Below are positions 1,463 to 18,538 of a stretch of DNA of 64,000 nucleotides, piece after piece. Below the pieces are notes generated by a model. The model saw only the letters and a list, made by a program, of their open reading frames with translations, did no database searches and was not told where the DNA came from. Position 1 is the stretch's first letter. Every line of letters begins with the position of its first letter. The position numbers and the translations under genes are program-made. Source of the DNA: a virus; IMG/VR virus record IMGVR_UViG_3300006141_000001. One strand, 5' to 3'.

Positions 1463-4400
1463 ATGAATGATTTTATTGTCCAGCTTATAGCAAGATTAGA
1501 TGCGACAAAAGTGAGCGGTGATATAAAAAAAATAGAAGAGCAACTAAAATCTAAAGGCATAAAATTAAAGCCTGTTATTGACTCATCTGTGACTAAACAA
1601 GAATTGCAAAATTTGTCTGTAGAATTACAATCAATATTAAAAAAATCTGGACTGAATATTGATACGAGTAAAATTCTCAGTTCCATCAACCAGATTATTA
1701 GAGAAACTAATAAGGTTGAAAAAGCTATTGTTTCATACACTAATAAATTAAATGATTTTAAGACAAAATACTCAGAAGCCAGTATTGATTACAGTAGTTT
1801 TGAAAAAGTATTTACTCAATTTAAAAATGGTGAGAAAACTTTGAATGAATTAAGCGTTGCTTGGAATAGGTTAAATAACACTGCAAAGCAAGGCACGCAG
1901 AATTTAAAAAGCAAGTCCTCATCTTTTGACCCAATCCAGCAAACACTAAATGATATGAGAAACTTACCTTCTAATTTGACTTCTTTAGAGAAAAGTATGT
2001 CCTCGCTAAAAGACAAATCTAGTTTGGCTGGAGTTTCCATAAAAGACTTAATGACAGAATATGAGGGTTTGAAAAATGAAATGTCACAAAGCAATGGAAA
2101 AGTCCCATTAACAGATGATTGGACTTTAAGATATAGGACTTTAATGGAAACTGTTCAATCTTTAACGAAACAGGTTGAAACATTAAAAAAAGTCGAAGCT
2201 TCAGATAATTCACAAGTTACAAAACAAGCGAATTATTATTCTACTATTCTATCCAACTATAGGCAGATATACTCTTTAAAGCAAAAGCTATTAACTGCTG
2301 GTAAAGAAGAAGAAAAAATCATCAAAGAACAGCTTCGTTCTCTTAGAGCAAGCAATGCAGCAACTTATAAGCAGTTATCATCTCATGGTTTAAAAGATAA
2401 AGGTTGGCAGTCACAGGTCAATGATTTTAAAAAAAGTGCAGAATATAGTTTGCGGGCGGCAGAAGCAAGGCAAAAAGATAAACAAGCAACTGCTGATGCT
2501 ATAAATGCGGAAAAACAACGGCAAGCGAATTTAAAAGAATCAAACAATATTATTAAAGAGTTGGAAAAATCTTATAATAATATAAGCAAATTACAGATAA
2601 AGAAAAGCACTCTTGATCCATCTGTTGATTCTGAAAAAATCACGAAGCTAAGCCAGGAAATAGCCCTAGCGAAAAGGGAATATGATGCACTTTTGTCTTC
2701 TTATAGCAAGAATAAAAATTTTGATAATTCTGCGTGGAAAAATGTTAAATCTGATATAGATGCCGCAACAAAAAGCGCAATTGAATATAATAATGCTTCT
2801 AAAACTGATTACATAAATAAGCAAAAAGAAAGTTTTTCTATTAATCTCGCTGCTCTAAAAACTTCATTAATAGAAAGTGGAACGTATACAGATGAACTAA
2901 AACAAAAGATTTCTTTGCTAGAGTCCGAACTTGAGAAAGTTTCAAATAAGGGGGATCTGTCCACTTTTAAAAATAATTTAAAATCCATACAAACTGAAAT
3001 CAGTTCATTAACATTGGCAAATAAAATTCAATTGAAAGTTGACAGCGGAGATTCTGAGTCAAGGGTTGAAGCACTTATCGCAAAAACCAATCAATGGACA
3101 GACGTTAATGGAAATGCCAGGATTAGTACGACCAGTTTAAGTCAGGCATTGAATGAATTGACTGCTGCTTCTGAGGCTTACAGAAATAATAATACAGGAG
3201 AAACCCAGAAACGTCTTATTACCGCAAACGAAAAACTTACTGAGGAATACAATAAGGTGACAAGTGCCGTAAGGAGGATGAATGCCACATATGCGAAGGA
3301 TACTGATATCGCTTCTCTACACAATAAGATTGGGGATTTTATTGGGAAAAATGGGGATATCATAAAACATCTCGGCACTGACCTGAATGCGATGTTTAGC
3401 CAAACAGCAAAAGGTTCCCAAATTACAACCCAGGAACTGGCCGCATTAGAGCAGAAATTTATAAGTGTGAAAAATGCCGCCAATCAAATTCAAATGGCAA
3501 ATGCCATACACCTAAAAATAGAAACTGGTGAATCAGAGTCAAAAGTTGCGGCATTGATTGACAAGACAAAGCAATGGACTGACGTGAATGGTAATGCAAG
3601 GATCAGCACATCTAATCTATCTTCTGCCCTACATGAATTAGTCACTGCTTCAAACGAATACGCAGGCAATAAGACAGAAACTGCACAGAAAAAATTGATT
3701 GCGTCCAATGAGAAATTAGATGCGGAGTATAAAAAAGTCGCAAATTCTATAAGGCAGACGAATGCAGAGCTGGCAAAGGATTCTGCTGTGGCCTCCCTGC
3801 ATAATAAAGTTTCTGAATTTATGGGAAAGAATGGCAAAGCTGTAAAATATTATGGCACACAGCTAAAAGATATATTCGACAAGACTGCCCAAGGCTCTGA
3901 AGTGTCGAAACAAAAATTGGCACAGCTAAACCAGGAGTTTATAAAATTACAGAATACAGCAAGGGCTAACGGGAAGCTTGGAAAAACATTTTTCCAGACT
4001 ATAAGGGAAGGGATGAGTTCTTTTTCTTATTGGACAAGTTCTACTTTTATGGTAATGAAGGCTATCCAGTCCGTCAAAAGCGGGATAAGCACTATCAAGG
4101 AACTGGACACTGCTTTGGTTGACTTAAAAAAGACAACTACCATGACAGCAAGTGAGCTGGAGGAATTTTATTATGACGCGAATGAGACTGCTAAGGAAAT
4201 GGGCGTTACTACCCAGCAGATTATAGAACAGGCATCGGCGTGGTCAAGGTTAGGATTTTCCAGTGCAGACGCAGCCACTAAAATGGCGAAATATTCCTCT
4301 ATGTTTAAAACAATATCTCCTGGGATGGATTTAGATTCTGCCACCGATGGTCTTGTTAGCATTATGAAGGCTTTTAAAATTGGGCTGGATGATTCTGATG

Positions 4401-4821
4401 AAGTGGTAGACGGAATTATGAGCAAGATTAATGTCATCGGGAATAGTAAGGCATTAAATAATTCAGATATAGTTGAATTTTTAAGGCGTTCTTCTAGTGC
4501 TATGGCTGAAGCCAATAATAGTCTTGAGGAAACCATAGCCCTCGGTGAAGCGGCTGTGGAGATAACTAGAGATGCCTCAAATACAGGGCAAGTTTTGAAG
4601 ACTACAAGTATGAGAATTAGGGGTTATGACGAGGAAGCACAGAGCTATACAGAAGAATTAGAAAATCTTAAAGGGGAAATTGCAGATTTAACAAAAACAG
4701 CAAAAACCCCAGGAGGAATCAGCCTCTTTACTGATGACACAAAAGAAACTTATAAATCTACATATAAAATTATAGAAGAAATCTCTGAAATATGGGATGA
4801 CCTTACAGATAAAAATCAGGC
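1463..4821 (+). CDS. tape measure protein, exon 1
   Basis: Long helical/coiled-coil ORF with TP901-type TMP core (ELDTALVDLKK...SAWSRLGFS...RIRG...IWDDLTDKNQ). The annotated ORF reads through into intron 1 and stops at 4858. Confidence 0.88.
3017..3960 (+). repeat. in-frame tandem duplication (period 480 nt / 160 aa) within TMP exon 1
   Basis: ANKIQLKVDSGDSESRVEALIAKTNQWTDVNGNARIST at 3017 vs ANAIHLKIETGESESKVAALIDKTKQWTDVNGNARIST at 3497. Confidence 0.9.
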
Positions 4822-5299
4822 AAACAATATGTGCCTGTATGTACAGAAATGTGCATAATATAACACATCTAAAACCAGTAAAACCTAAAGCTCTATCACT
4901 ACAATACGGATGAAATATGCTGGTATGAATGTAACGAAAGTAAAACAACGATAGAGATTCCATATGGCCAAAAGCCTAAGTGGAGATTTTGTCAATTTTA
5001 TATAAATTGAAAATGGTAGCTTGGTCGCAAAGTCCCGAATAGGGATACGTCAAACGACTAGATCCATGTAGGGGTTTGGGCTAGAGAATAAAGGTAAAAT
5101 CCTGAATATCCAAACCTATAATCGTAGGGCGCAAATATATGGCGTGGGTGAGAACCCCTTAAATCGAAACGGTGTGGCTGCTACTCTAATCAGAGTGTGG
5201 TTAAAAAATAGTCTAAACATCTATGGAAACATAGAGATGTTATTGGTTAATTAAATGAGTCTGATTAACTCAAAAAAATATAAGCAGGATAGATAATAT

Positions 5300-5473
5300 A
5301 TGAAGAAATTTGACAAAGAATATTCGACACAATATACTCCTGAAAAAGAATATCTGTCAAAAAAAGGAATTAAACCTTCTTTTGTAAAAATTATAAATGG
5401 AGTAACCACATATAAGTATAAAAAGACACCAGAACTATTTTTAGCTCTAGTGTCTTTTTACATGAAGAAATAA
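5300..5473 (+). CDS. small intron-encoded protein (57 aa) upstream of the endonuclease
   Basis: ORF MKKFDKEYSTQYTPEKEYLSKKGIKPSF...KTPELF read directly; below track cutoff. Confidence 0.6.
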   Translation: MKKFDKEYSTQYTPEKEYLSKKGIKPSFVKIINGVTTYKYKKTPELFLALVSFYMKK

Positions 5474-5507
5474 ATATATGAAAGGATAATAAACTGGTGA
5501 TAATATT

Positions 5508-7019
5508 ATGAAATGGACTTCTGAAGAAGAACGAATAATAAAAGATAATTATAAAAATATGTCTGATATTCAATTGATGAATCTTTTACCAAATAGATCT
5601 AAATCTAGTATAGAATCAAAAAGAAAAGACATGGGATTTATTAGACCAAAATATAAAAAATATTCTTTTGATGATGTTATTGATGAATTTTCTAATAGGA
5701 ATAATTATATTTTATTATCAACAAAAGATGAATTTATAGACTGTAATTCAAAAATGAGGTACATCTGCAAATTACATACAAATAAAGGCGAACAATATAT
5801 ATCATTAAATCATATGATGTCAGGAAGAGGATGTAAATATTGTGGCAGAAAACTTGCCGCTCAAAAAACGATGATTCATCTTGATAAAGAATCTGACAAA
5901 AAATTGTGCGAATCTAAAAATTTTGAATATGTAGATACGGTTAGAGAAAATGGCAAAATTAAAATTGTATTTATCTGCAATAATCACCGAGATTTAGGAG
6001 AGCAAAAGGTATTAAAAAGCAATATGAATCGCAATCAAGGATGCAAGTATTGCTGTGGCAAAGAATTGCCAGAGTGGTATGTGTTGCAAAAATCTCATAA
6101 AATAAACCCAAATATAAAATTATTAGAGCCCTATAAGAATTTAACAACTCGTATAAAATGCTTATGCACGAAACATAATCTTGAGACAAATAAAACAATG
6201 CAACAAATATTAAAAGGACAAGGATGTTGTCTTTGTGGGAGTGAAAAATTATCAAAACAAAAATTTCTTTCTATTGATGAAGTCCAAAACAGTATTAATA
6301 AATATAACCCGCATATTAAAATACAAAAATATAATGGGGCAAACGTTGAATCTACTTTTTATTGCCTAAAGCATAAAAAGATATTCAAAAAATGCTATAG
6401 CACATTATTACATCGTAAAAGCGGATGTGATGAATGTTATGCTGAAAACATTCGCGAAAGACAAGGAATGGGGATTGAGGAATTTAAAAATAGATTGCAA
6501 AAAGTACATCCAGAATTAATAGTGACTGGGGAATATGTAAATAATTCAACACCAATTAATGTATATTGCCAGAAACATAATTATGAATATGCTCTTACTC
6601 CTGTTGCATTATTAGATAGATTGACCTGTTGCAATAAGACACGTATCACATATAAAGAAGAGAATATTTGTCAATTGTTAGAAAAGTGGGGATTTAATAT
6701 AACCAGGCAAAAAATATTTGATGACTGTATTGATAAGCGCGCTTTGCCTTTTGACATTTATTTTGATGATTTCAATACAATTATAGAATATCAAGGAGAG
6801 CAACATTATAAGCCGATTAAATATTCTTCACAATCATATGACGATGCTAAAATCAAATATGAATATACCAAAAAACATGACAAAATAAAAAAAGAATATT
6901 GTAAAAAACACAAAATCAAGTTTATTGAAATTCCTTATTGGGAATTTGATGATTTAGAATATTTTTTATTTGATCAATTAGTTAAGAAGAAGATAATTAT
7001 AGAGAACAAAGCGGCATAA
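5508..7019 (+). CDS. intron-encoded putative homing endonuclease (Zn-binding repeats + C-terminal PD-(D/E)XK/Vsr-like nuclease)
   Basis: Repeated CxxH...GCxxC units; C-terminal LPFDIY...IEYQGEQHY...D..K motif; located in an intron stem loop. Confidence 0.8.
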   Translation: MKWTSEEERIIKDNYKNMSDIQLMNLLPNRSKSSIESKRKDMGFIRPKYKKYSFDDVIDEFSNRNNYILLSTKDEFIDCNSKMRYICKLHTNKGEQYISLNHMMSGRGCKYCGRKLAAQKTMIHLDKESDKKLCESKNFEYVDTVRENGKIKIVFICNNHRDLGEQKVLKSNMNRNQGCKYCCGKELPEWYVLQKSHKINPNIKLLEPYKNLTTRIKCLCTKHNLETNKTMQQILKGQGCCLCGSEKLSKQKFLSIDEVQNSINKYNPHIKIQKYNGANVESTFYCLKHKKIFKKCYSTLLHRKSGCDECYAENIRERQGMGIEEFKNRLQKVHPELIVTGEYVNNSTPINVYCQKHNYEYALTPVALLDRLTCCNKTRITYKEENICQLLEKWGFNITRQKIFDDCIDKRALPFDIYFDDFNTIIEYQGEQHYKPIKYSSQSYDDAKIKYEYTKKHDKIKKEYCKKHKIKFIEIPYWEFDDLEYFLFDQLVKKKIIIENKAA

Positions 7020-7079
7020 TCAACCGTTGCAATAATTAACCAATAACTCGTAAACGTTATGAACTTACGGAATACAATG

Positions 7080-7224
7080 ACAATTGCTTGAAGCTTTAGC
7101 GGGGAAAAGAAATGGGCAGGCTTTAGCAGCTATCATCTCTAATTTTAATAGCGCCCGCGAATCAATGGAACTTATGGAAAATTCTGCTGGAAATGCAGAA
7201 AAGGAAATGTCAGTCGTTGTGGAC
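7080..7224 (+). CDS. tape measure protein, exon 2
   Basis: QLLEALAGKRNGQALAAIISNF...NSAGNAEKEMSVVVD is the expected TMP continuation. Confidence 0.85.
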
Positions 7225-7766
7225 AAACAAAACTGTCCATATGTACAGAAATGTGCATATAGTTCATATTTAATTGCAGGTAATGCGTAAGAGCCTTGCA
7301 CCACAATAATCAGGAAACTAGATTATGAAGGTACGAAAGTAGAAAAAACGCAAGGATGGTATATGGTCAAAAACCTAAGTACTACTCTTATATCAAAAAG
7401 AGAAAATCGCTGTTCATGCAGCCAAACACCCTAACGTATCCCATAGACCATATGGTATTTGAGTCGAGGGTGGAGGTTCAACGATCATTCCCCGTAAGGG
7501 GATTTAGGAATACTGAAAATTCAGTTATAAAATAAAGGTGGAAATCCTGAATACCTAAATCAAAAGAAGTACGGCTTAATCGCAAATGAAGTCGGTGAAA
7601 CTCCGTTAAATGGAAAAGGTATGCTCTTAACACATAATGGTGAAGATGGAAAAATGATCTAAACATCCATGGAAACATGGAGATGCTATTGGTTAACTTA
7701 GAAAATAAACATATTATATTTTAACCAATAACTAATTGGATGTTGCGAATCCGATTGAATATTTTG
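7225..7766 (+). mobile_element. group I intron 2 in TMP gene (no ORF)
   Basis: P1 TGGAC/GTCCA; P10 ACT/AGT; P element AATTGCAGG; R GTTCAACGATCA (7476-7487) pairs with S TGATCT (7655-7660); terminal G 7766. Joining gives VVD-SIDYKLNRLKET in frame. Confidence 0.87.
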
Positions 7767-7967
7767 AGTATCGACTACAAACTAAACCGTCTCAAGGAAA
7801 CAGCCACTGGCACAGCCCAGAACTTATTCAAACGCGAAGACATGAAAACCATCATAGATGGATTGACAGGTCTTTTAAGCGTAATTGACTCATTAACAGA
7901 GAAATTAGGCATATTAGGAACCATAGGATTTGGTGCAGGCCTATTCGCTGGGATTAAAAACGTCGGT
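7767..7967 (+). CDS. tape measure protein, exon 3
   Basis: SIDYKLNRLKETATG...GLFAGIKNVG, TMP-like, with no RBS or start of its own. Confidence 0.82.
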
Positions 7968-8410
7968 AAGCCTAAAATGCGTGGCTTCATATTTTAAACG
8001 TGCCGACAATAATATGTGTTCTTTAGGATACTAAAGTTTCCATATTATCGAATGCGGGATATACGCATGGTAAATAAATAACAGGGACAATATGCGGGAA
8101 AAATTGAGGTACAACGGCTGCGTAATGGCAGTATATCACTACTCTCCTGCCCATGGGAACGTGTGCAGGTTCGTAAAAACGTGACGCTCCTCCAATCCGC
8201 AGGGACAGGCCTATGATGGCAAGCCCTCACAGAGCGGCAACTCCCACAATAAGTCTATTTGAAACGATGCTTATTGAATATGCGCTCGGTGCTGCCTGGC
8301 ATGACAGGTCAATCCGTGAAAAGATTGTACAAATGCGGGAATCTTATCTCCTGCTCATGCAATGTGGAACCCTTATTGCCAAGGGTTGGTAAGAATGGCA
8401 ATATTAAAAT
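7968..8410 (+). ncRNA. catalytic core of group I intron 3
   Basis: GC-rich structured non-coding block with P, Q, R, S elements in correct order (TATGCGGGAA, AATCCGCAG, TCACAGAGCG, AATATGCGCTCG). Confidence 0.8.
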
Positions 8411-8522
8411 TTGTGTAACTCAGAAAAAAGTCGAAAATTTTTTAAAAAATTTATTATAAATTATATTTACAAATTTTACTAATTATGCTACTCTGAAAAT
8501 ATAAAAATTTCGGAGGTGTAAA

Positions 8523-9515
8523 ATGAAAACAGCCAGTAAGGAAAGAACATTACAATGGATTGTAAACCAACATAAAAAAGGAAATATTTCTTTTTCGCAC
8601 AAGCTACAGAGGCCGATTGGGCAATGGAATGCAAGAATGAAGTCCCTATTGATACACAGCCTTTTGTCTGGATTCCCAGTGAACCCCATTTATATAGTAG
8701 ATGAGGATGGAACGTTATATACGCTTGATGGATCGCAAAGAACTTCAACTTGCATCTCCTATATAAACAATGAATTTTCATTAAGCAAAGATACTCCCAA
8801 AATTGTAATTAAAAGCAAAAAAGATGGGGAAACCGTATCGACAGAGTATGATATAGCAGGCAAAAAATTTAGCAAATTAGACGAAGAGGTGAAATCGACC
8901 TTGCTTGCATGTAGTTTAGAATTTTGCACATTATCTGAATATACAGATAATGAGGTCAAGGAAATGTTCAAGAGACAGAATACTTCCAAGCCTTTAAATG
9001 GTAAATTATTGCGCATAGTCCATGAATCAGATGCCTTCAGTGATGCTGTATATTCACTTGCTACTCATCCATTTATGCTTAAAATCACAACGCCAACACA
9101 ACGTAAGAATGGGACAGATAGGGATTTAATCATCCAAACACTTATGCTTATGTGTACTGACAAGGAAAATGATTTTACTTCGTTTAGGACAAAAGACATT
9201 GATGCCTTTGTTCGTGATTATGGTGACAGTATTTTAAACAAGACAGAAGTATTGCAAACTGCACTGGACAATTTTAATAAATCATTTGACGAGATAAAAA
9301 TACCTGTCACATCTGTACCAATGGTGTTATATAGCGGATATCGTATAACCAAAGACAAGAAATCATTCTCAAAATTAGTTGAAATGATAAACGAATTCTT
9401 AAATGGATATGATGGGAACGAAGAATATAAGAAGTATGTGCAATCCGGAACAAGCAATTCTGATAATGTCCGTGGAAGGTTTGATTATTGGAGGGAAAAA
9501 ATCAAGACGGCATAA
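8523..9515 (+). CDS. DUF262 (ParB-like/GmrS-type) domain protein
   Basis: LQRPIGQW...LIHSLLSGFPV..IY...LDGSQR...F.RQN matches DUF262 QR/DGQQR motifs. Confidence 0.8.
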   Translation: MKTASKERTLQWIVNQHKKGNISFSHKLQRPIGQWNARMKSLLIHSLLSGFPVNPIYIVDEDGTLYTLDGSQRTSTCISYINNEFSLSKDTPKIVIKSKKDGETVSTEYDIAGKKFSKLDEEVKSTLLACSLEFCTLSEYTDNEVKEMFKRQNTSKPLNGKLLRIVHESDAFSDAVYSLATHPFMLKITTPTQRKNGTDRDLIIQTLMLMCTDKENDFTSFRTKDIDAFVRDYGDSILNKTEVLQTALDNFNKSFDEIKIPVTSVPMVLYSGYRITKDKKSFSKLVEMINEFLNGYDGNEEYKKYVQSGTSNSDNVRGRFDYWREKIKTA

Positions 9516-9520
9516 ATTAT

Positions 9521-9556
9521 AGCCTGTAAGAAGAATGATTATTTTTCTTGCAGGCT
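9521..9556 (+). terminator. hairpin, probable terminator after DUF262 gene
   Basis: AGCCTGTAAGAAGAAT / ATTTTTCTTGCAGGCT inverted repeat. Confidence 0.6.
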
Positions 9557-9765
9557 TAATTTATAATATTACCATTTTTGTTACGCAAATATTAAGTTAT
9601 TATTAAATAAATGTTAATATACTTGACATTTAGTATTTTTGTGATACACTTTTGATGTTTAATTATATTGATTTGTTACATTTGTACAAAAATCGCTAAG
9701 AAACATTTGATTTTATTTACTATATTCACTAAATTTGATAATATTGTTTTAAAAGGAGGATTATT

Positions 9766-10401
9766 ATGAACAATATTGTCAATTTAAACACTAGGAGAAA
9801 AGATAAAATGAACAAAAATACACTTGTATCAAAATTAGAAGAACAACCAGGAAAAAGCTATACGATAACTCAAGCAGAAGATTTAGCAAAAGACGTATTA
9901 AAAATTTGTGGGTATGATAAATTAGTCGGAGCAATCCCTATAATTAAAGTTGCAAATAATTTTGGGTTTCGATGTGTAAAAGCAACTGTCCCAGAACATA
10001 TTTCTGGAAACATATTTGTAGGCGGTACGACTGAAAACATATATAAATCTGATAAAGTTATTGTTGTTGGAGATAACGAAGATCCAAAACATCAAAGATT
10101 TATTATTGCACATGAACTTGCGCACTACTTAATGGATTATATAGGGAGCGATAAATCAAAAAATCCAAATTTATTGTTTTCTGAAACATATTTAAAAGAA
10201 AATCATGATAACGATAAAGAAATGAGAGCTGATAGGTTTGCTGCTGAACTATTAATGCCATCCATGATATTTTTAAAGCAATTTCTTAAAGTGGCTGAGG
10301 CTTGTGATTATAATAGAAATTATATTATTTCTTACTTATCGAATTTCTTTAAAACTAAGAAAAGTAGTATTGAAAGACGTATAATAGAAGTTCTTTCATA
10401 A
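9766..10401 (+). CDS. ImmA/IrrE family metallopeptidase
   Basis: RFIIAHELAH (HExxH) and E.RADRFAAELLMP motifs. Confidence 0.88.
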   Translation: MNNIVNLNTRRKDKMNKNTLVSKLEEQPGKSYTITQAEDLAKDVLKICGYDKLVGAIPIIKVANNFGFRCVKATVPEHISGNIFVGGTTENIYKSDKVIVVGDNEDPKHQRFIIAHELAHYLMDYIGSDKSKNPNLLFSETYLKENHDNDKEMRADRFAAELLMPSMIFLKQFLKVAEACDYNRNYIISYLSNFFKTKKSSIERRIIEVLS

Positions 10402-10419
10402 AATATCGCGAGGGTAAAA

Positions 10420-10995
10420 ATGACAAATGATAATCGTGGGTTACAAACCCATAATAAATATACAGATGCATATGTTGGAATATTAAAAACATATAAAGAA
10501 CAGATTTCGAATTCTGTAACTAAAAAGAATGAATTAAAAGAAAAATTTTTCAATATAATCAAATGGATGTTGTATGCGTTGACAATTATTTTTGCTCTGA
10601 CTATGATAATTTCTCTTGGATTATTTGGTGTAATGGTATGCAAAGATTCCGAATCATCAGGTATTATTACTGGGGCAATTACCACACTTGTATCTTCTTT
10701 TGTTACAATGGTGTTGTCAATATTTAAACTTCCTAAAATTATTGCAGATTATTTATTCAACAAAGAAGAAGATAAATTAATGAAGGAAATAATTGAAAAT
10801 ATTCAGAGTTACGAAATTGAAGCTGTAAAGTATGAAATTAAAAACACTGAATTAGAAAGAGTTATGCAGTTAAAAACAGGAATAAGTGATGCAACAGATA
10901 AAAATTTAGAAGATTCAAACTACGGCGTGCCAGATGACCATCAAAACTCAGAAGAGACGGAGGACGATGTGTTAGAAGAATCTGATGTTTCTTAG
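10420..10995 (+). CDS. two-TM membrane protein with acidic tail
   Basis: Two hydrophobic segments; 18 nt after the IrrE-like gene. Confidence 0.7.
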   Translation: MTNDNRGLQTHNKYTDAYVGILKTYKEQISNSVTKKNELKEKFFNIIKWMLYALTIIFALTMIISLGLFGVMVCKDSESSGIITGAITTLVSSFVTMVLSIFKLPKIIADYLFNKEEDKLMKEIIENIQSYEIEAVKYEIKNTELERVMQLKTGISDATDKNLEDSNYGVPDDHQNSEETEDDVLEESDVS

Positions 10996-11341
10996 GAATA
11001 TTTTAGATGGATTAAGAACTTTGTAAAACTCAAGATGGAGTAAGTTAATCTTTCGCAGGCTTAAGTTATATGATTTATTCTCATCTGTATTTTAAATCTT
11101 AATTTTTTATTCATTCATGGATCTAATACCCTGCTGCTTGCAACGTTCTGAAGAAGGAGTTAGGGTTAGATATCCAGTAGTTTGTTGCGGATAGTTCGTT
11201 AAGTATTTGACAAATCGTTTAATATATATTATAGATAACATGTTATTTTGGCTTTGTGCATTTTATATAAAAATATTTGATTTTTTATTTATTCCAAAGT
11301 TGTACATTGAATACAAAAGGTTCACAGGAGATAAAATTATA

Positions 11342-13375
11342 ATGAAAAAGGAAAAATTCAAAAGTACATTTGCTATAATACATTTGTCAGATTTGCATAT
11401 CGTATCTCATACAAATGATTATTCAATATCTTTACATAAAATGATTGATCATATTTTCACAGTTACTGAAAACATTTCTAAAATTATTATTGTATTTACT
11501 GGAGATTTAGTTGAGAAAGCGGATTTTTCGAATTCGGAAGAAACTATATATAATTTTTTTAATGATTTATACTCTAAGTTAGGAACTAAAATTATTGATA
11601 TTGTATTCACACCTGGAAATCATGATAAAAAAAGAGGTCTTTTAATGTTAAAGACTTTAAAAAACGAGAACAATGAAAAGTTTTGGGGAAATTTTAAGAA
11701 AAACGAGTGGGCTTATTTTGCGAATCAGTTTGATGAATTCTTGAAAATTACACATACTATAAGAAAAGAAATTTTTAAATTGGGAGATACATTTGAAGGT
11801 ACATATGGTATGCACATCACAGAAATTGATTCTTTTAAAATTTGTTTTCTTTGTATAAATTCTTCATGGTTATGTATAGATGAGAATGATGAGGGCAGAT
11901 TAAGAGTTGGAATGTTTCAATTAGATGATTTAAGGTCAGATTATCAAAACAAAAAATCAGAAATAAATTTGGTTATAGCATTAATGCATCATCCTACAGA
12001 TTGGTTGACAAAAGACGAACAAAAATATTTAAACTTATACATGACAGATGAATATAGATTAAATACAAATATTATGTTACAAGGACATATTCACGAGAGA
12101 GAAACATATAATTGGTATAACCAGAACCATTCATTGACAACTTTAGTAACAGGCATGGGATGGGATCAGCAAAAAGAGATTAAAGATAATGGTCATCGTT
12201 ATTCTTTGTATGAAATTAATATGGATAGTTCTGTCATTAGGGTTAATACATTTGTATCTGACAACACTGGTAGGTTTACTGACGATACCGAAGTGTATAA
12301 AGATAATAACATTATATTCCCATTATTTGTTCATAAATATTTAGAAATGAATAAACTCAGATTCAATGGGAGTGAATACCCTCTTTTTTATCCAAATTAT
12401 AATATTGCAGATAATTATGAGGATATTGCGAATGGGATGAACAAATTTTCTATTAATATAATATCAATAATTAAAGATTTCCATTATGATTGCTTAATTC
12501 TCAATGAATATATCGCCTTTATAAAAGATATTATCATGTCGAGTTATGATGATGGAGAAATAAAATGGTCGAAAGAATTTCAAAATATTATAAAAAACAA
12601 AATTTCAAGAAATGATAAATCTCTATTATTAAAAAAGATCCGTAAAAGTAAAGATAAAGATTTTTATGATATTTTTAATAGTCTATGTACTGTTATTGAT
12701 TTAATTTCTAAAAAAGAAGAAATACGCTCTATAACAAAAATGGAAGAAATTTTAGATAAAATTTGTTTAAAACAAATAAATATTGATGCAAAAGATAAGT
12801 TTTATAGTTTTATTGGCTCTATATGTCTTGAATTGCAAAAATGTATTTTTAAAAAAGAGATTTTTTTTGAAGAATCCCTTTTAAGAATACATTTTCGGAT
12901 TGTAAATTTGATGGAAGACGATATAAAGTATAAAAAGTTATTTTCATATTCAGTGATTCAAGAAAAGGGTACAAAAAAACTAAAACCAATTGAAGACTCT
13001 GAACTGTCTGATATTAGTTATGATGGTAGTATGATAGAAAAGAGTTTTTCTTTAAATCGCTCTATGTTATTTTCACTAAATCCTTCAAGCAACAAACATA
13101 AAAGTGAAAATAATTGGATTGACTTCTTAACTATTGCTCCTAAAAATAGTTTCAATCTTTATAAAACAGATGACGATGATACTATACCATATTTATCTTT
13201 TGGTATCTCCGTAAATAGTTTTAAGCTACAAATATACCTTCGTGAACTGTCATTTATAGGATTTGATAAACTACTCTCAAACATTTTAAGTAATTTTTTT
13301 AAAAATATTCCTTTTGATATATCAACACTCTTAGAGGAGGGGGACAAAGTAAATGAATACGATGAATATTTATAA
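11342..13375 (+). CDS. calcineurin-like metallophosphoesterase with long C-terminal domain
   Basis: HLSDLH, TGDL, PGNHD, MHH, GHIH motifs. Start moved to ATG 11342 (AGGAG RBS); the track's TTG at 11207 is part of a TTGACA box. Confidence 0.85.
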   Translation: MKKEKFKSTFAIIHLSDLHIVSHTNDYSISLHKMIDHIFTVTENISKIIIVFTGDLVEKADFSNSEETIYNFFNDLYSKLGTKIIDIVFTPGNHDKKRGLLMLKTLKNENNEKFWGNFKKNEWAYFANQFDEFLKITHTIRKEIFKLGDTFEGTYGMHITEIDSFKICFLCINSSWLCIDENDEGRLRVGMFQLDDLRSDYQNKKSEINLVIALMHHPTDWLTKDEQKYLNLYMTDEYRLNTNIMLQGHIHERETYNWYNQNHSLTTLVTGMGWDQQKEIKDNGHRYSLYEINMDSSVIRVNTFVSDNTGRFTDDTEVYKDNNIIFPLFVHKYLEMNKLRFNGSEYPLFYPNYNIADNYEDIANGMNKFSINIISIIKDFHYDCLILNEYIAFIKDIIMSSYDDGEIKWSKEFQNIIKNKISRNDKSLLLKKIRKSKDKDFYDIFNSLCTVIDLISKKEEIRSITKMEEILDKICLKQINIDAKDKFYSFIGSICLELQKCIFKKEIFFEESLLRIHFRIVNLMEDDIKYKKLFSYSVIQEKGTKKLKPIEDSELSDISYDGSMIEKSFSLNRSMLFSLNPSSNKHKSENNWIDFLTIAPKNSFNLYKTDDDDTIPYLSFGISVNSFKLQIYLRELSFIGFDKLLSNILSNFFKNIPFDISTLLEEGDKVNEYDEYL

Positions 13376-13613
13376 AACCGTATTTTTAGATCGTATGACA
13401 GCGATAGCATTATTAGTTAGATTACAAAATGGGGATATACCTTATCCACATTCAAAACGATGTCGTGAACAATTAATATATTTTTTATCTTGCATTTTAA
13501 CAGATGAAGACAGAGATGAGCCTATATTAAAAATTGATTTTGAGGAATTAGACATGTTTATAGATGATGTCGATACTGCATTTAAAATAATAGAACAGTA
13601 TGGTATAACATGA
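13353..13613 (+). CDS. small protein overlapping the phosphoesterase stop
   Basis: GAGGAGG RBS inside upstream gene; overlap suggests translational coupling. Confidence 0.7.
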   Translation: MNTMNIYKTVFLDRMTAIALLVRLQNGDIPYPHSKRCREQLIYFLSCILTDEDRDEPILKIDFEELDMFIDDVDTAFKIIEQYGIT

Positions 13614-14056
13614 ATTATAGTTATTCGCACTGTACTTAAATAATAAGAGTGAAATCATTTTACTAATATCTAATCATTTAGTTATATAACTTTCCACACA
13701 CCAAAAACTGGTGCAGACACTTGAATTATCAAGAAAAATTGGTGTCTTGACGTTAAAATAGCACCTAATTCCAGAGTTTTACGTTCTTGTTCGTTGGCAG
13801 ATATCACAGCCTGTATCAAAAGTAAAGTGACCGAATGGATAATCTCTCAGGCGGCATTTATACAGGCTTTGTTTGAAAATATCTGCTGGGAAAGTTGAGC
13901 TATTAAATAAATGATACCCAGATTATTCTTGGGTGTCGGTTTTATTTTACTACTACTCTCCCACTATTGGAAATTTTACAGAGATATATAACAAATACAT
14001 GGCGTACGCGGATTAAACAAAGAAAGTTTTTACTTTATAGGGAGGAAAATAATAAA

Positions 14057-14236
14057 ATGAGTCTAATTGTTTGCTTATTTATAATCATGTTTCTTGCAAT
14101 GTTAATCTTTGGTGGGCTGGATATTCTACGGGATGAAAGAAATCCTCTGCCAAAGTTTGAAAATGGCGATGAGCATATAGAGCAGATTAAAGTTATAAAA
14201 AGAACACGTAAAATCATATTAAATATACTTGAATAG
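14057..14236 (+). CDS. small single-TM membrane protein
   Basis: GGAGG RBS, ATG 14057, hydrophobic N-terminus. Confidence 0.55.
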   Translation: MSLIVCLFIIMFLAMLIFGGLDILRDERNPLPKFENGDEHIEQIKVIKRTRKIILNILE

Positions 14237-14494
14237 ATTGTGTTGTATGTTCGTGAGTTAATCGTATAAACTGTTTGAGAACCCAAATGACTCTTGCCGT
14301 TCGTTATAAGTTACGTTAATCCAAAAGAGAGTCGTATCTAAGGTATCATCAGAATATAGGACGGTGATGGTAGTGAAATTAAAAAGCGCCTTTGGCAGTA
14401 AACTTTTATGAGCAATTAAACAGTTGCTCTTTTTTCGTATCAGAAAGAAATAATTATTCTGGTCATAATACAAAAGCGAAAGGAGGAAAATAGC

Positions 14495-14755
14495 ATGAGT
14501 GAATATGGCGAAACTGAAAGAAAGAATGATTTTAATTATTTTATTGATCATTATCAGGAATTTTACAAACAGTATGGGCATAAATTCATTGCCATTAAGG
14601 ATAAAGAAATTCTCGGATCATATGATACTGAATTGGATGCTATAAATACTACATCTAAAAAATATCCTCTTGGGTCTTTTATTGTCCAGGAATGTAATGG
14701 TGATGAGTCCGGGTATACAAATTATATCTCTTCATGGCAGCTTTTTAGTTTATAG
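14495..14755 (+). CDS. small protein, DUF5678-like
   Basis: AGGAGG RBS; F....EFYKQYGHKFIAI...ILG pattern typical of partners of retropepsin-like proteases. Confidence 0.6.
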   Translation: MSEYGETERKNDFNYFIDHYQEFYKQYGHKFIAIKDKEILGSYDTELDAINTTSKKYPLGSFIVQECNGDESGYTNYISSWQLFSL

Positions 14756-14757
14756 GA

Positions 14758-15198
14758 TTGGCGGTGCAACTAATGATAATATCTGTATTTACTGAAAAAT
14801 ACAATGGGATTCAAAAAAGATTGATTAACTCTGCAATTGCGGAATATAATAATAATGTCGCTCCTGTAAAAGCTCAATGGGACACTGGAGCCACTGGAAC
14901 ATGTATATCAAAGGAACTAGCAAAAAAGTTGAAACTTGTCCCTACTGGCCTTGTAAATGTTCAAACACCATCAGGTAATGGAACTATGAATAAATATATG
15001 ATCGACTTAACATTAAACAACGAAGTCAGAATTAGGAATTTACCTGTTATGGACTCTGAAATTGGGAAACAAGGGATAGATGTGCTGATTGGAATGGATA
15101 TTATTTCTATGGGTGATTTTGCAGTATCCAATTTTAATAAAAAGACGCAATTTTCGTTCAGAATTCCATCTCAAGAGCATGTTGAGTATTGCAGATAA
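14758..15198 (+). CDS. retropepsin-like aspartyl protease
   Basis: WDTGATGTCIS catalytic motif and DVLIGMD motif. Confidence 0.85.
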   Translation: MAVQLMIISVFTEKYNGIQKRLINSAIAEYNNNVAPVKAQWDTGATGTCISKELAKKLKLVPTGLVNVQTPSGNGTMNKYMIDLTLNNEVRIRNLPVMDSEIGKQGIDVLIGMDIISMGDFAVSNFNKKTQFSFRIPSQEHVEYCR

Positions 15199-15454
15199 TC
15201 ACTAGTTGTAGGGAATAATTATTAAAGAGATATGCCTATAAAGTTGATTGCACCCCGCTTTCAACTTGCAGTATTATAAAAAGCGCAATTAAGATAAGCG
15301 TGGAAATATCCAAATTAAATCATGCAAAATTTATGTATTACCGAAGATTGGAAAGAATAAAAGGGAGAGGAACAATTAACATCGGAACAGAAGAAAAATC
15401 TTTTTACCTACGGGTATTTAGATTGTTATATCATTTACTGTAATAAACCAATTA

Positions 15455-15483
15455 AAGACTCTACCTACGGGTAGGGTCTTTTG
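15455..15483 (+). terminator. intrinsic terminator
   Basis: AAGACTCTACC-TACG-GGTAGGGTCTT followed by Ts. Confidence 0.65.
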
Positions 15484-15809
15484 AATGTTCTGTCATCATT
15501 ATGTCTTAAAACATTATAAGGAATTAGAACGCTATAAAATCAGTTCCTTATTTAATGCTATTTGCATTATTGATAATATTGTTGTTTTACCATGTATATC
15601 CGCAATTTTTGCATTTAAATGATTTGTTGATTTTTTTGCTAAATAAACCCAACATTGCTACTGATATTACTCTTTTACAGTCTCCTATCTTCTTTATTTT
15701 TGTTGATGAACATGTTGGGCATTTTAGTTTAAGATTTATTGCTATGATGTTTTTTGAAATTGAATTAAGAGTAAAAAATATATTTGGAAATTCATTTTAT
15801 TATTAGGGT

Positions 15810-15838
15810 TTGACAAACTCAATATTTTATAGTATGCT
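15810..15838 (+). promoter_or_regulatory. sigma-A-type promoter
   Basis: TTGACA-17 nt-TATGCT upstream of ORF 15870. Confidence 0.6.
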
Positions 15839-15869
15839 GCAAATATAAAATATACATGAGGATAAAATA

Positions 15870-16937
15870 ATGGGTTATATCAATAAGCTTTTAGATTCGG
15901 ATTCAGAATCAGTAAATAATATGAAACTTAAACAAATTATCGTACTCGCAGGTGATGGCATTATTACTCATAAAAATTCTTTTGAAGAACTTAGGATGTT
16001 TTTCGCCAAAATTGATGCTACAATGATTTGTAAATTTATGAAAGAATGTTTATCCGAAGAAAAAGAAGACAAATTTGATGGAAGAGGCTTTGTATTACAA
16101 GATTTAATAAATGAAGTCGGGCATCGTCTTGGTTATAATGTAACGCATGGTTTATATAAAGGGAAAAAAGGTACTAATGGATTCGATGGATTATGGAAAC
16201 ATCCAAATGGTTTCTCTATTATTGTGGAGTCTAAAACTTCAGATGCATATGCTTTAAATATAGATTCAATAGTAGGTTATCGTGAAAAGTTAATAGAAAA
16301 CCATCAAATTGATAAAAATAAATGTTCAATACTAATTGTTCTTGGCCGAAATGATAAAAACACTTTTACCAATATCATAAAGGGTTCTAATGAAGCACAT
16401 AACATAAGAATCATCAGTGTTGTGGCACTATGCAGACTTTTAGAAATTTATGAAAGTTCAAATAGGCATAAGATAACGCAGAATAAAATTATGGATTTAT
16501 TAATTCCTCACGATTTTGTTCAATTGGATAACTTGGTTGATCTCGTATTCTTAGAAAATGACAATTCAGAAGTATCTATTGAGGAAACAAGGTCATACAC
16601 AGATATTCCTGAATTGCCAGATAAAAACCTTCTTACTGGCAAATTTGTAAATGAGGCAATGAGAAATCTCAGCAATAGTGGATATGTTTTTTCCGAACAA
16701 CAATTAGAATGTATGATGAGTAAGGAATGGAGCAATAAGGTTTTGAAATTGAATTATCCATTTTTTAAATTTTATAATCCGTCTGACATTAAAGGACACT
16801 ATATCAGAAATGTCCAGCGCTATTATGCAAACACTTTTTCATTTGGAAATGTTACTGTATATATAACAAAAGAATGGTATCCAAAAAACAAAAAGCCATT
16901 TATAGAATGGTATGAATCACTTACATATACACTATAG
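15870..16937 (+). CDS. PD-(D/E)XK restriction-endonuclease-like protein
   Basis: Q/E...GFDGLW...IVESKTS catalytic-type motif; separate C-terminal domain; no adjacent methyltransferase. Confidence 0.7.
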   Translation: MGYINKLLDSDSESVNNMKLKQIIVLAGDGIITHKNSFEELRMFFAKIDATMICKFMKECLSEEKEDKFDGRGFVLQDLINEVGHRLGYNVTHGLYKGKKGTNGFDGLWKHPNGFSIIVESKTSDAYALNIDSIVGYREKLIENHQIDKNKCSILIVLGRNDKNTFTNIIKGSNEAHNIRIISVVALCRLLEIYESSNRHKITQNKIMDLLIPHDFVQLDNLVDLVFLENDNSEVSIEETRSYTDIPELPDKNLLTGKFVNEAMRNLSNSGYVFSEQQLECMMSKEWSNKVLKLNYPFFKFYNPSDIKGHYIRNVQRYYANTFSFGNVTVYITKEWYPKNKKPFIEWYESLTYTL

Positions 16938-17133
16938 GGCATAATTTCCACATAGATAAAGGATTACTGTCAAATAGTATAGCAACCATTTATTTCTGTG
17001 AAAATTCATGATTCAAAAGGGATCCATAGAAGCAGGAAGAAAAAGGAAATTGACGAATAATATCTGTGTATGATATTATTGTTATATAAATATAGGTTTC
17101 TTTTTTGTTCATAAAAAATTCACATTCTGTTCG

Positions 17134-17162
17134 TTGACTGTTCTTTGAAATTGGTGTATACT
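17134..17162 (+). promoter_or_regulatory. promoter of type III TA locus
   Basis: TTGACT-17 nt-TATACT. Confidence 0.7.
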
Positions 17163-17190
17163 ATTAGCAAGAAATCTAAAAGGTTTCTAA

Positions 17191-17310
17191 CAAATACGTT
17201 TCACAATGTACGATACCCAAACATTGTTTATTCAATTACATTTCGCAATGTATGACAAGGAAACATTGCCTATACAAATACGTTTCACAATGTACGACAA
17301 AGAAACATTG
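17191..17310 (+). ncRNA. type III antitoxin RNA: about 2.9 tandem 42-nt repeats
   Basis: Units start at 17191, 17233 and 17275 (CAAATACGTTTCACAATGTACGA...AAACATTG) between promoter and terminator. Confidence 0.82.
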
Positions 17311-17312
17311 TT

Positions 17313-17341
17313 AAGACCTTTGTATAAACAAAGGTCTTTTT
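17313..17341 (+). terminator. terminator between antitoxin repeats and toxin
   Basis: AAGACCTTTGT-ATAA-ACAAAGGTCTT followed by T run. Confidence 0.85.
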
Positions 17342-17355
17342 ACTGGGAGATAATT

Positions 17356-17850
17356 ATGATACAAAATGGTATGTACTATATGACTGATGAATATAAAGAT
17401 TTAGTATGTTCACTGGGCGGCGAATGGAATGATAGAAAAAAACGTCCTATAGTTTGTTTATTACAATCTACAGAAAATCCAGAGCTTTACTGGGCTATCC
17501 CCGTAGGGAAAGTAAATCACAGAGATGACAAAGCACTAAAAAGAATAAATATGTATATGTCTTACAAGGATATACGTGGATGTTTTTATCATATTGGCAG
17601 AACAACAAACAAATCTATATTTTTTATTTCAGATGCCGTCCCTATCACTAATAAATACATACTAGAAGAACATTTAGGAGCAGACAAATGCCATTATATA
17701 TTAAAAAATCCTAAATTAATTTCTATCTTAGAAACAAAACTAAAACGTATATTATCATGGGAAAACGCAAACCCAAATTCGTTTAGACAACATATTACAG
17801 ATATTAAAAATTATCTACTTAATGAATTGAATAAAGCGGATTCTATTTAA
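17356..17850 (+). CDS. type III toxin-antitoxin endoribonuclease toxin (CptN/ToxN-like)
   Basis: YYMTDEY...RPIVC...YWAIP motif; canonical repeat-terminator-toxin layout; start 17356 with GGGAG RBS. Confidence 0.8.
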   Translation: MIQNGMYYMTDEYKDLVCSLGGEWNDRKKRPIVCLLQSTENPELYWAIPVGKVNHRDDKALKRINMYMSYKDIRGCFYHIGRTTNKSIFFISDAVPITNKYILEEHLGADKCHYILKNPKLISILETKLKRILSWENANPNSFRQHITDIKNYLLNELNKADSI

Positions 17851-17988
17851 TCATTCTAGGACTATAATAATATTTATATGCAGACAAAATGGCTCTACAG
17901 AAAACATAAATGTAAAGTCATTTTTTGTATAAAAATTACATACACTATTATACTTTTTAGAAAGGACGTGGTTTGACATATGATTTAG

Positions 17989-18381
17989 CTAATTATTTAT
18001 TTCAATCTCTGTCCATTGATCATCACCACCATTAATAGTTAGTTGAGCCATTATAAGTGCATAGTCACCGTACTCGATAATTTTTTCATAATCGTCATCT
18101 TCTATTGTTTGATATATACTATCATAAAAAATGGAATTGTCGTCAAGTAGTATTATTGCTTTATCGTTACTATGATTTGAAGAATAAAATTCTAAATATA
18201 CAGCATTTTTTTCTTTATTATATAAGCATTGATTTATTGATATTTCGTCTGATAAATCCTTATTTATTATTTCTCTTGATTCTTTTATAATCTTATCTTC
18301 TGGCGAACTAGATGAACATCCAGAAATTATAGTTAAGACAATAAAAATTATTAATATGACTTTATTTTTTAGTTGTTTCAT
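17989..18381 (-). CDS. lipoprotein (possible superinfection exclusion)
   Basis: MKQLKNK + hydrophobic stretch + ISGC lipobox; GGAAGGTG RBS; function inferred. Confidence 0.7.
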   Translation of the reverse strand: MKQLKNKVILIIFIVLTIISGCSSSSPEDKIIKESREIINKDLSDEISINQCLYNKEKNAVYLEFYSSNHSNDKAIILLDDNSIFYDSIYQTIEDDDYEKIIEYGDYALIMAQLTINGGDDQWTEIEINN

Positions 18382-18538
18382 GATATCCACCTTCCTTGAA
18401 TTATTTTTACTAATTATAACATTTTTGAATAAAATATTCAATATTTTTGTATTAAATATTTTTGTATTAAATATTTTATTTACACTTTGGTAACTCCACA
18501 ATACCAAAAATAATACTTATGTATTATATTACAGTATG

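Follow-up and report, generated by a model that had tools for sequence, protein, structure and literature searches.

How can a ribozyme at the start of a phage intron select a splice site ten kilobases away, across a stretch filled with other genes and their terminators? The question is raised by the third intron of the tape measure gene in IMG/VR virus record IMGVR_UViG_3300006141_000001. The record is a single viral contig of 169,653 bp, assigned to the linear class and with a completeness of about 70%; the window analysed here is a stretch of 64,000 nucleotides from it. An earlier note on this DNA had proposed that the intron either depends on strong late antitermination or is assembled in trans from two transcripts that form a bipartite ribozyme. 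We consider it somewhat more probable than the alternatives taken together (roughly 55%) that positions 7968–18538 constitute one group I intron, which is normally spliced from one continuous late transcript.

The tape measure gene in the window is interrupted by three group I introns. The open reading frame (ORF) at 1463–4858 contains a PhageMin_Tail domain and matches positions 247–832 of the tape-measure profile phrog_4211, and an ORF of 2,714 amino acids that begins at 18536 matches positions 940–1484 of the same profile. Uninterrupted tape measure proteins from metagenomes align collinearly with four pieces of the window in tblastn searches (up to 4822, 7075–7224, 7767–7967 and from ∼18539 onward), and joining exons 1463–4821, 7080–7224, 7767–7967 and 18539–26680 yields a single frame that stays open for 3,948 codons. 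The four collinear pieces and the joined open frame indicate that the gene is split by three intervening sequences. The spliced junctions DKNQA/QLLEA, VVVD/SIDYK and KNVG/KFKT (slashes mark the points of ligation) agree with the uninterrupted homologues. For exons 3 and 4, the ligated junction is predicted to read ...AACGTCGGT/AAATTCAAA..., and likewise ...AAAAACGTCGGT/AAATTCAAAACA....

The whole predicted ribozyme, from P1 to P9.2 together with a closing pseudoknot, sits in the first ∼435 nt of intron 3 (Table 1). The last six bases of exon 3, GTCGGT, form the 5′ strand of P1, and U7967 marks the 5′ splice site. P1 is perfect in the window and has the U·G pair at the 5′ splice site that characterizes group I introns. 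Across relatives, changes in the exon are matched in the guide (GTCGGT/GCCGAC, TTCGGT/GCCGAA, GTTGGT/GCCAAC and AGCGGT/GCCGCT). The consensus fold of 21 distinct 5′ domains, calculated with RNAalifold, shows compensatory changes in 46 of 61 pairs. These changes support P4, P6, P6a, a 6-bp P7 with its bulge, P8 and P9.2, and P3 covaries in the same alignment (GGGA/UCCC, GGAG/CUCC, CAGG/CCUG, ACCU/AGGU and GUCU/AGAC). The order of the core helices, P3-[P4-P5-P6]-P7-P3′-P8-P7′-P9 with a bulged P7, is the canonical group I topology.

The earlier note had placed the end of the core near 8341, with TGTGGA just after it. The structured 5′ domain extends further, to about 8402, and TGTGGA thus lies within the peripheral domain of the ribozyme. 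We refer to this hexamer as linker X; in the predicted structure it is a single-stranded strap between two folded elements, P9.2 and the pseudoknot. A separate observation concerns the same two elements. The conserved loop of P9.2 (CUUAUC) and the loop of the pseudoknot are complementary; the latter reads GAUAAG, or GGUAAG in the window (8388–8393). Compensatory variants of this loop–loop pairing (CUUACC/GGUAAG, CCUAU/AUAGG and UCUAUC/GAUAGA) can be read from the alignment among the relatives at loci L064, L060, L084 and L093.

Many gut-phage contigs contain an intron of the family to which intron 3 belongs, inserted at the same codon of the tape measure gene. The members are 1.7–10.6 kb long and share a plan in which a core supported by covariation is followed by swappable cargo genes. 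We scanned viral, metagenome and genome contigs with the protein region of exons 2 and 3, which gave 47, 80 and 17 loci, respectively. At many of these, the tape measure frame stops right behind the KNxG codon, and at a sizeable subset a guide 30–56 nt further 3′ matches the last six bases of the exon, with G opposite the terminal U. The conserved core motif is present in 42 viral contigs. Complete introns measure 1,699, about 2,840, 3,038, 3,039, 3,455, 4,126, 4,624, 6,013, 6,452, 8,888 and 10,571 nt. All 11 introns with a resolved 3′ end finish in AGUAYG; a pattern search for 3′ ends among the 42 motif loci recovered only L049 and L076. The introns of L015, L019, L176 and L057 end in ACG, and since this provides no start codon, exon 4 of these four must be spliced. 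The record MT835469 (locus L001), from a related phage and 176 kb long, carries a 3.5-kb insert with other genes inside after the same codon. Its intron (subfamily B, 3,547 nt) forms a second subfamily at this insertion site together with L042 and L043, and its core and that of the window are too divergent for a usable MAFFT alignment. Locus L093 (10463–20462) has a normal 5′ domain, but the 10 kb that follow contain no exon 4 of the tape measure gene; it represents either a still larger intron or separated halves.

At the other end of intron 3, the earlier note had described two terminal hairpins and a complementarity between TGTGGA and TCCACA in the loop of the first one. Both features are present. 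The two hairpins are the minimum-free-energy fold of the last 53 nt (−10 kcal/mol, z = −2.17), and the second of them is absent from relatives. The caution in the note that a 6-nt match alone could be chance was well placed, as 188 of 2000 shuffles (9%) equal it. The relatives add the covariation that the note had named as a check. In every family member, linker X lies directly 5′ of the closing pseudoknot, and every complete member has a hairpin ∼20–36 nt ahead of the 3′ splice site with a loop complementary to its own X (Table 1). Both sides have changed in 3 of the 6 pairs between the UGUGGA class and the GUUUGG class, which gives three compensatory positions over ten introns. When the 3′ modules were shuffled among the introns (ten lineages), the observed total was reached in 9 of 20,000 permutations, and cross-class combinations of X and loop pair worse than the natural ones (mean of 5.2 versus 7.0). 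Duplexes of the 5′ domain with the 3′ module calculated with RNAduplex are long, interrupted and uninformative.

The 3′ splice site is also the target of two other pairings. In P9.0, the bases GUAY directly ahead of the terminal guanosine of the intron, ωG, pair with J7/9 (RUAC), and L002 preserves this helix by a compensatory change (AUAC/GUAU). In P10, a guide immediately 5′ of the P1 strand pairs with the first bases of exon 4, over 8–11 contiguous pairs in relatives. The family thus shows the ωG, P9.0 and P10 arrangement of group I introns, with a weak P10 in the window. Since the X–loop helix is kept through compensatory changes, and since P9.0 and P10 likewise address the 3′ splice site, we conclude from covariation that the predicted docking module is real, and the compact 3′ module of the earlier note is backed by all three pairings. 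Along the P10 guide itself (7988–8007 versus 18539–18552), the window has an eroded sequence, AUAUUUUAAACGU compared with UGUUUUGAAUAU in the family, and several pairs with exon 4 that are kept in relatives are broken.

The anatomy of the intron, its family and the covariation of the core, the X–loop helix and P9.0 are features of the aligned sequences; how they would act together can be proposed as follows. The last ∼53 nt would label the 3′ splice site like an address, with the hairpin loop on X, GUAU on J7/9, ωG at 18538 and a weak P10. This label would dock on the folded core and bring the distant splice site into the G-binding site, and the exons would then be ligated as KNVG/KFKT. A single late transcript would read through the cargo terminators, and the cargo units would be transcribed separately from internal promoters. 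A low splicing yield may suffice, as one virion needs only a few tape measure molecules. Both the splicing of intron 3 and the use of one continuous late transcript are what we infer from this arrangement. Splicing in cis is supported by the layout of all complete family members, in which the strand that carries the 5′ domain also carries the 3′ module and exon 4 further downstream.

Several observations weigh against splicing from one continuous transcript, or against the assignment of the intron. The path from the core to the 3′ splice site crosses five sense terminators and an antisense gene with a strong promoter, and a phage RNA polymerase, a sigma factor, a NusG-like protein and a Q-like antiterminator were not found on the ∼70%-complete contig. 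These searches covered T7-like and multisubunit RNA polymerases, sigma regions 2 and 4, NusG and the Q antiterminator; the search for a T7-like polymerase gave no match in any control genome either. The addressing of the window copy is the weakest of the family, with an X helix of 6 bp, a P9.0 with two G·U pairs and a P10 reduced to 9 of 14 interrupted pairs, and its core carries unique changes (a 1-nt deletion in J6/7, A to G at the P7 bulge and A to G in J7/9). Searches with the Rfam group I model gave no match to intron 3 at the gathering score and none with E ≤ 1 over 4800–8600. Introns 1 and 2 of the tape measure gene likewise escaped these searches, and since intron 1 resembles annotated introns, we read the miss as a limited reach of the model. 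A blastn comparison of the 5′ domain of intron 3 with phage records gave no match.

The dilemma posed by the earlier note is a fair one, since the terminators are real and no antiterminator was found on the incomplete contig. Its second branch is bimolecular trans splicing, which we judge to be rather unlikely, and we favour read-through in cis. In trans, a 5′ RNA with exons 1–3 and the ribozyme would end at a cargo terminator, and a 3′ RNA would carry the docking hairpin and exon 4. The latter could start at a cargo promoter, for instance that of the type III toxin–antitoxin locus near 17134, or a long precursor could be cut inside the cargo, for instance by a CptIN-type RNase at its own repeats. 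The two RNAs would assemble via the X–loop helix, P9.0 and P10. The five sense terminators suit this arrangement, as the last of them lies 1.2 kb before the 3′ splice site; a scan detected no sense terminator-like hairpin in 17338–18538, and a transcript from the promoter near 17134 could therefore reach exon 4. The antisense promoter that fires into the cargo, the three separate pairings that address the 3′ module and the lack of a match to any antitermination factor in our searches of the contig point the same way, and a sense terminator hairpin is found inside even the smallest relative (L015, 1.7 kb). The trans step itself is without positive support, however: a cis intron with a far 3′ splice site also needs a docking module, for which the T4 sunY intron is reportedly a precedent. 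A search of the terminal 220 nt in ten introns of the family found no conserved sense promoter: sense matches there are weak and inconsistent and antisense promoters are consistent, and the antisense promoter accounts for the spacer next to the module. Halves are separated or inverted in no family member found, with L093 lacking exon 4 within 10 kb, and several relatives, including the 6-kb intron of L019, show no strong sense terminator. The pairing that would hold two RNAs together is short in the window (6 bp in the X–loop helix, 4 bp in P9.0 with two G·U pairs, and a broken P10). The cargo does sit where organellar trans-spliced group I introns break, their breakpoints coinciding with ORF sites and one lying downstream of P9.1, but natural trans-splicing group I introns are known from organelles only (PMC3873408), and our literature searches turned up no bacterial or phage example. 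The more general proposal that the ribozyme RNA and the RNA with the docking hairpin and exon 4 are separate in the cell, made apart or by cleavage in the cargo, with the X–loop helix as an assembly handle, appears doubtful to us. If true, this would be the first group I intron beyond the organelles to splice in trans in nature, and separate RNAs would account for the way in which an essential phage gene can harbour an island of freely exchangeable genes laden with terminators.

A different possibility, which we regard as improbable, is that intron 3 of the window no longer splices, because the tape measure is made as two polypeptides (exons 1–3 ending in KPKMRGFIF and a stop codon, and the 2,714-residue protein from the ATG at 18536) or because the contig derives from a decaying prophage. 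The intron does end in ATG, in frame with exon 4, and the record is a metagenomic contig of ∼70% completeness. Moreover, as its X, P9.0 and P10 pairings are the weakest of the family and its core has changes that are unique to it at conserved sites of J6/7, the P7 bulge and J7/9, the window copy may splice poorly or not at all. On the other hand, exon 4 of the window has no Shine–Dalgarno sequence ahead of this ATG, whereas neighbouring genes carry strong GGAGG sites; P1 is perfect and helices P3–P9 are intact; the deviation count of the window (13) is similar to those of L015 (11) and L084 (12); and the four exons are open and in register over all 3,948 codons. The ATG alternates with ACG among relatives and hence belongs to the AGUAYG end of the intron, and a conserved start codon of an independent C-terminal protein was rejected as a family feature. 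Finally, the 3′ hairpins and the 6-nt match could lack an RNA function and be DNA-level elements of the antisense promoter region, complementary to X by chance. The frequency of equally long matches among shuffles of the window alone would allow this, and the −35 element of the antisense promoter overlaps the hairpin in several relatives. With compensatory changes at half of the six positions between classes, at a homologous position in ten introns with unrelated cargo, and with so few permutations reaching the observed total, we consider this explanation highly improbable. Splicing from one continuous transcript remains the reading that we prefer, and the features on which it bears are collected in Table 1.

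Table 1. Features of intron 3 and its surroundings, and X/loop sequences of family members
Feature	Positions	Strand	Basis or remark
Tape measure exon 3	7767–7967	+	tblastn of uninterrupted homologues, junction context
Intron 3	7968–18538 (10,571 nt)	+	third intervening sequence of tape measure gene
Complete 5′ ribozyme domain	7968–8402	+	21-sequence alignment, RNAalifold
Internal guide sequence GCCGAC	8002–8007	+	pairs with exon 3 GUCGGU, 7962–7967
P2/P2.1	8009–8048	+	
P3	8084–8087/8242–8245	+	
P4	8093–8097/8197–8201	+	
P6	8202–8226	+	
P7, bulged	8233–8239/8281–8286	+	
P8	8247–8276	+	
J7/9 GUGC, P9.0 partner of last four intron bases before ωG	8289–8292	+	ten-intron P9.0 comparison
P9	8295–8308	+	
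P9.1	8310–8327	+	
P9.2 hairpin	8335–8354	+	alignment, consensus fold
Linker X UGUGGA, docking receptor for 3′ hairpin loop	8363–8368	+	covariation in relatives
H-type pseudoknot closing 5′ domain, AACCCUU/AAGGGUU and AUUGCC/GGCAAU	8368–8402	+	both stems covary among relatives
Cargo, at least five autonomous transcription units	8403–18485		ORFs, promoter/terminator scan
First cargo gene, DUF262/GmrSD_N protein (PADLOC NsnA, 2e-33)	8523–9515	+	domain and PADLOC search
Sense terminator-like hairpin 1, 16 pairs, 6 nt past stop codon of DUF262 gene	9521–9556	+	scan
Sense terminator-like hairpin 2	13912–13938	+	scan
Sense terminator-like hairpin 3	14410–14429	+	scan
Sense terminator-like hairpin 4, 12 pairs then U-run	15457–15481	+	read from sequence
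Fusobacteriales-1 RNA, three ∼42-nt repeats	17192–17311	+	Rfam, 101 bits
Sense terminator 5, between antitoxin repeats and toxin gene	17313–17338	+	read from sequence
CptIN-family type III toxin, 164 amino acids	17356–17850	+	NCBIfam NF047359, E = 6.9e-14, full length, below curated cut-off
Antisense lipoprotein gene, 130 amino acids, signal peptide and lipobox IISGC, with ribosome-binding site	17989–18381	−	ORF, sequence
Antisense gene promoter, sigma-70-like, near-consensus TTGAAT-17-TATAAT, extended −10 (TG)	18413–18441	−	promoter scan
Direct repeat, 18-nt unit, copies 18440–18457 and 18455–18472, 15-nt period	18440–18472		sequence
3′ docking hairpin TTTGGTA/TACCAAA; loop UCCACA, 18495–18500, pairs with X	18486–18508	+	fold, covariation
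Second 3′ hairpin	18510–18527	+	fold
GUAU, 3′ strand of P9.0, then ωG at 18538	18534–18538	+	family 3′ ends
Tape measure exon 4	18539–26680	+	four-exon open frame, homologue alignment
X/loop, window			UGUGGA / UCCACA
X/loop, L015			UUUGUGGAA / UUCCACAAA
X/loop, L176			UUGUGGA / UCCACAA
X/loop, L171			AUUGUGGA / UCCACAAU
X/loop, L057			UGUGGAA / UUCCACA
X/loop, L002			UUGUUGG / CCAACAA
X/loop, L019, L020 and L049			GUUUGG / UCAAAC
X/loop, L161			UUGUUUGAA / UUCAAACAA

All five sense-strand terminator-like hairpins that the earlier note had placed inside intron 3 are present, as are the antisense gene and the AT-rich direct repeat before the 3′ module. The fourth and fifth hairpins were missed by the scanner because the A–T ends of their stems absorb part of the T-run. 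By number alone the terminators are not above chance (6 on both strands in the scan, compared with 3.1 ± 2.1 in shuffles); it is their position after cargo ORFs that makes them credible. The direct repeat has a degenerate third copy at 18418–18438, and its 18-nt units lie directly upstream of the −35 element of the antisense promoter. The AT-rich spacer with its repeats is also where the antisense gene has its predicted promoter. Of 10 relatives, 9 have a good antisense promoter that adjoins or overlaps the 3′ module. This promoter is strong and often has an extended −10 element, and it abuts or overlaps the DNA of the docking hairpin in L015, L176, L161, L001, L002, L019 and L020, as does that of the window. 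These bases would then have two roles, belonging to a promoter on one strand and to an RNA element for docking on the other.

The cargo of intron 3 comprises ∼10.1 kb with at least ten genes on both strands, arranged in separate units equipped with promoter-like sites and terminators of their own. A gene for a DUF262/GmrSD_N protein of ∼330–360 amino acids is the first cargo gene not only in the window but also in L019 (11044–12075), L020 (11044–12105), L147 (11362–12423) and L171 (10982–12076). Instead of acting in defence, this protein may be a nuclease that serves the mobility or maintenance of the intron itself. The other cargo of the window includes an M78/IrrE-type peptidase (PADLOC capP), a Metallophos protein and several small ORFs. 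The only Rfam family found in the window is the Fusobacteriales-1 RNA, whose repeats are probably the RNA antitoxin of a type III toxin–antitoxin system; in this locus (17134–17850), the promoter near 17134 is followed by the repeats, the fifth terminator and the toxin gene. The cargo of relatives differs, usually with a DUF262 gene first and one or more antisense genes last. No transposase domain was detected among the searched cargo ORFs of the window, which thus show no IS200/IS605-type element of the kind found in IStrons.

The group I intron of T4 sunY (nrdD), which Michel et al. are said to have described in Genes Dev in 1990 and 1992, reportedly has a remote 3′ splice junction and a 3′-terminal domain. 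It resembles intron 3 in that a 5′ core is followed by an ORF-containing stretch and a short 3′ domain that has to pair with the core, by P9.0 and a long-range pairing, before the distant 3′ site is used, and both introns are from phages. The predicted long-range pairing of a peripheral core element with a 3′-terminal domain is thus of the sunY type. For the partners, in intron 3 the linker between P9.2 and the pseudoknot and the hairpin loop, the comparison with sunY is at the level of architecture. The two introns differ in scale: sunY holds a single homing-type ORF in about 1 kb, whereas the 10.1 kb of intron 3 hold ten genes or more, which occupy both strands, form several transcription units and bring terminators of their own. 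IStrons such as CdISt1 of Clostridioides difficile and BcISt1 consist of a 5′ group I ribozyme followed by one IS200/IS605-type element of 1–2 kb. Intron 3 shares with them the 5′ ribozyme, the foreign gene-carrying element behind it and the 3′ splice site at the far end, but its cargo consists of variable defence-like, toxin–antitoxin and lipoprotein genes.

BcISt1 of Bacillus cereus is mentioned in excerpts of a study of group I introns in this species group, which also treats TMP-IVS1/2/3, introns in the tape measure genes of B. cereus-group prophages (Tourasse and Kolsto 2008, PMC2504315). According to these excerpts, TMP-IVS1/2/3 share with intron 3 the host gene, the kind of element and guides adapted to the insertion site, whereas they are small, some having a homing endonuclease gene and some not, and carry no multi-gene cargo, and the excerpts mention no remote docking hairpin (PMC2504315). 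Larger still are the giant ND5-717 group I introns of hexacoral mitochondria, which span 18–19 kb, enclose many genes and are removed precisely by an unusual route (Chi et al. 2019, PMC6545197); size alone is hence no bar to splicing. Their cargo lies in P8 and not after P9.2 and consists of essential mitochondrial genes on one strand, and they are organellar and not phage introns (PMC6545197). In trans-spliced group I introns of organelles, the breakpoints coincide with the ORF-holding loop of cis relatives (Pombert et al. 2013, PMC3873408), and the breakpoint of Pr.rnl.2 downstream of P9.1 is comparable to the cargo site of intron 3. Trans splicing is proven in the organelles by the separate locations of the two halves or their placement on opposite strands (PMC3873408), whereas the halves of intron 3 and its relatives are collinear in every resolved case and trans splicing is a possibility. 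Our literature searches turned up no account of phage introns laden with cargo in this way. The element combines known kinds, namely phage tape-measure group I introns, remote 3′ sites of the sunY type, an IStron-like 5′ ribozyme and the giant cargo introns of corals.

These comparisons provide evidence for a ribozyme that would choose a splice site ten kilobases off by means of a three-part address, consisting of the loop–linker helix, P9.0 and P10. They also outline a widespread family of phage introns with a swappable middle island of defence-like, toxin–antitoxin and surface-exclusion-type genes, parked in an essential late gene. The family bears on a question otherwise confined to organelles, that of group I halves working in trans in bacteria. 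For annotation, gene callers will split such tape measure genes and report a start-less "orphan" of 2,700 amino acids.

The remaining observations concern the rest of the gene and its insertion site. Introns 1 (4822–7079) and 2 (7225–7766) are sibling group I introns of the same gene. Their frame-restoring splice sites follow C4821 and C7224, which would place a C–G pair rather than U·G at the 5′ splice site. Intron 1 contains an HNH-type endonuclease ORF (5508–7019) enclosed by a long P9-like stem, and part of it shares sequence with annotated group I introns of staphylococcal phages (Twort, SapYZU04 and others). Phage tail length follows the length of the tape measure protein, and by this rule the spliced protein of 3,948 amino acids (1463–26680) predicts an exceptionally long tail. 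Nine further loci (L009, L011, L013, L017, L021, L023, L025, L027 and L038) break at or near the codon used by intron 3, ∼0–40 codons past the matched exon 3 region. The sequence after the break is unrelated in these loci, and several downstream exons begin with ATGTCTGTC... and are preceded by an antisense gene; this set probably represents one or more different intron families at the same hotspot.

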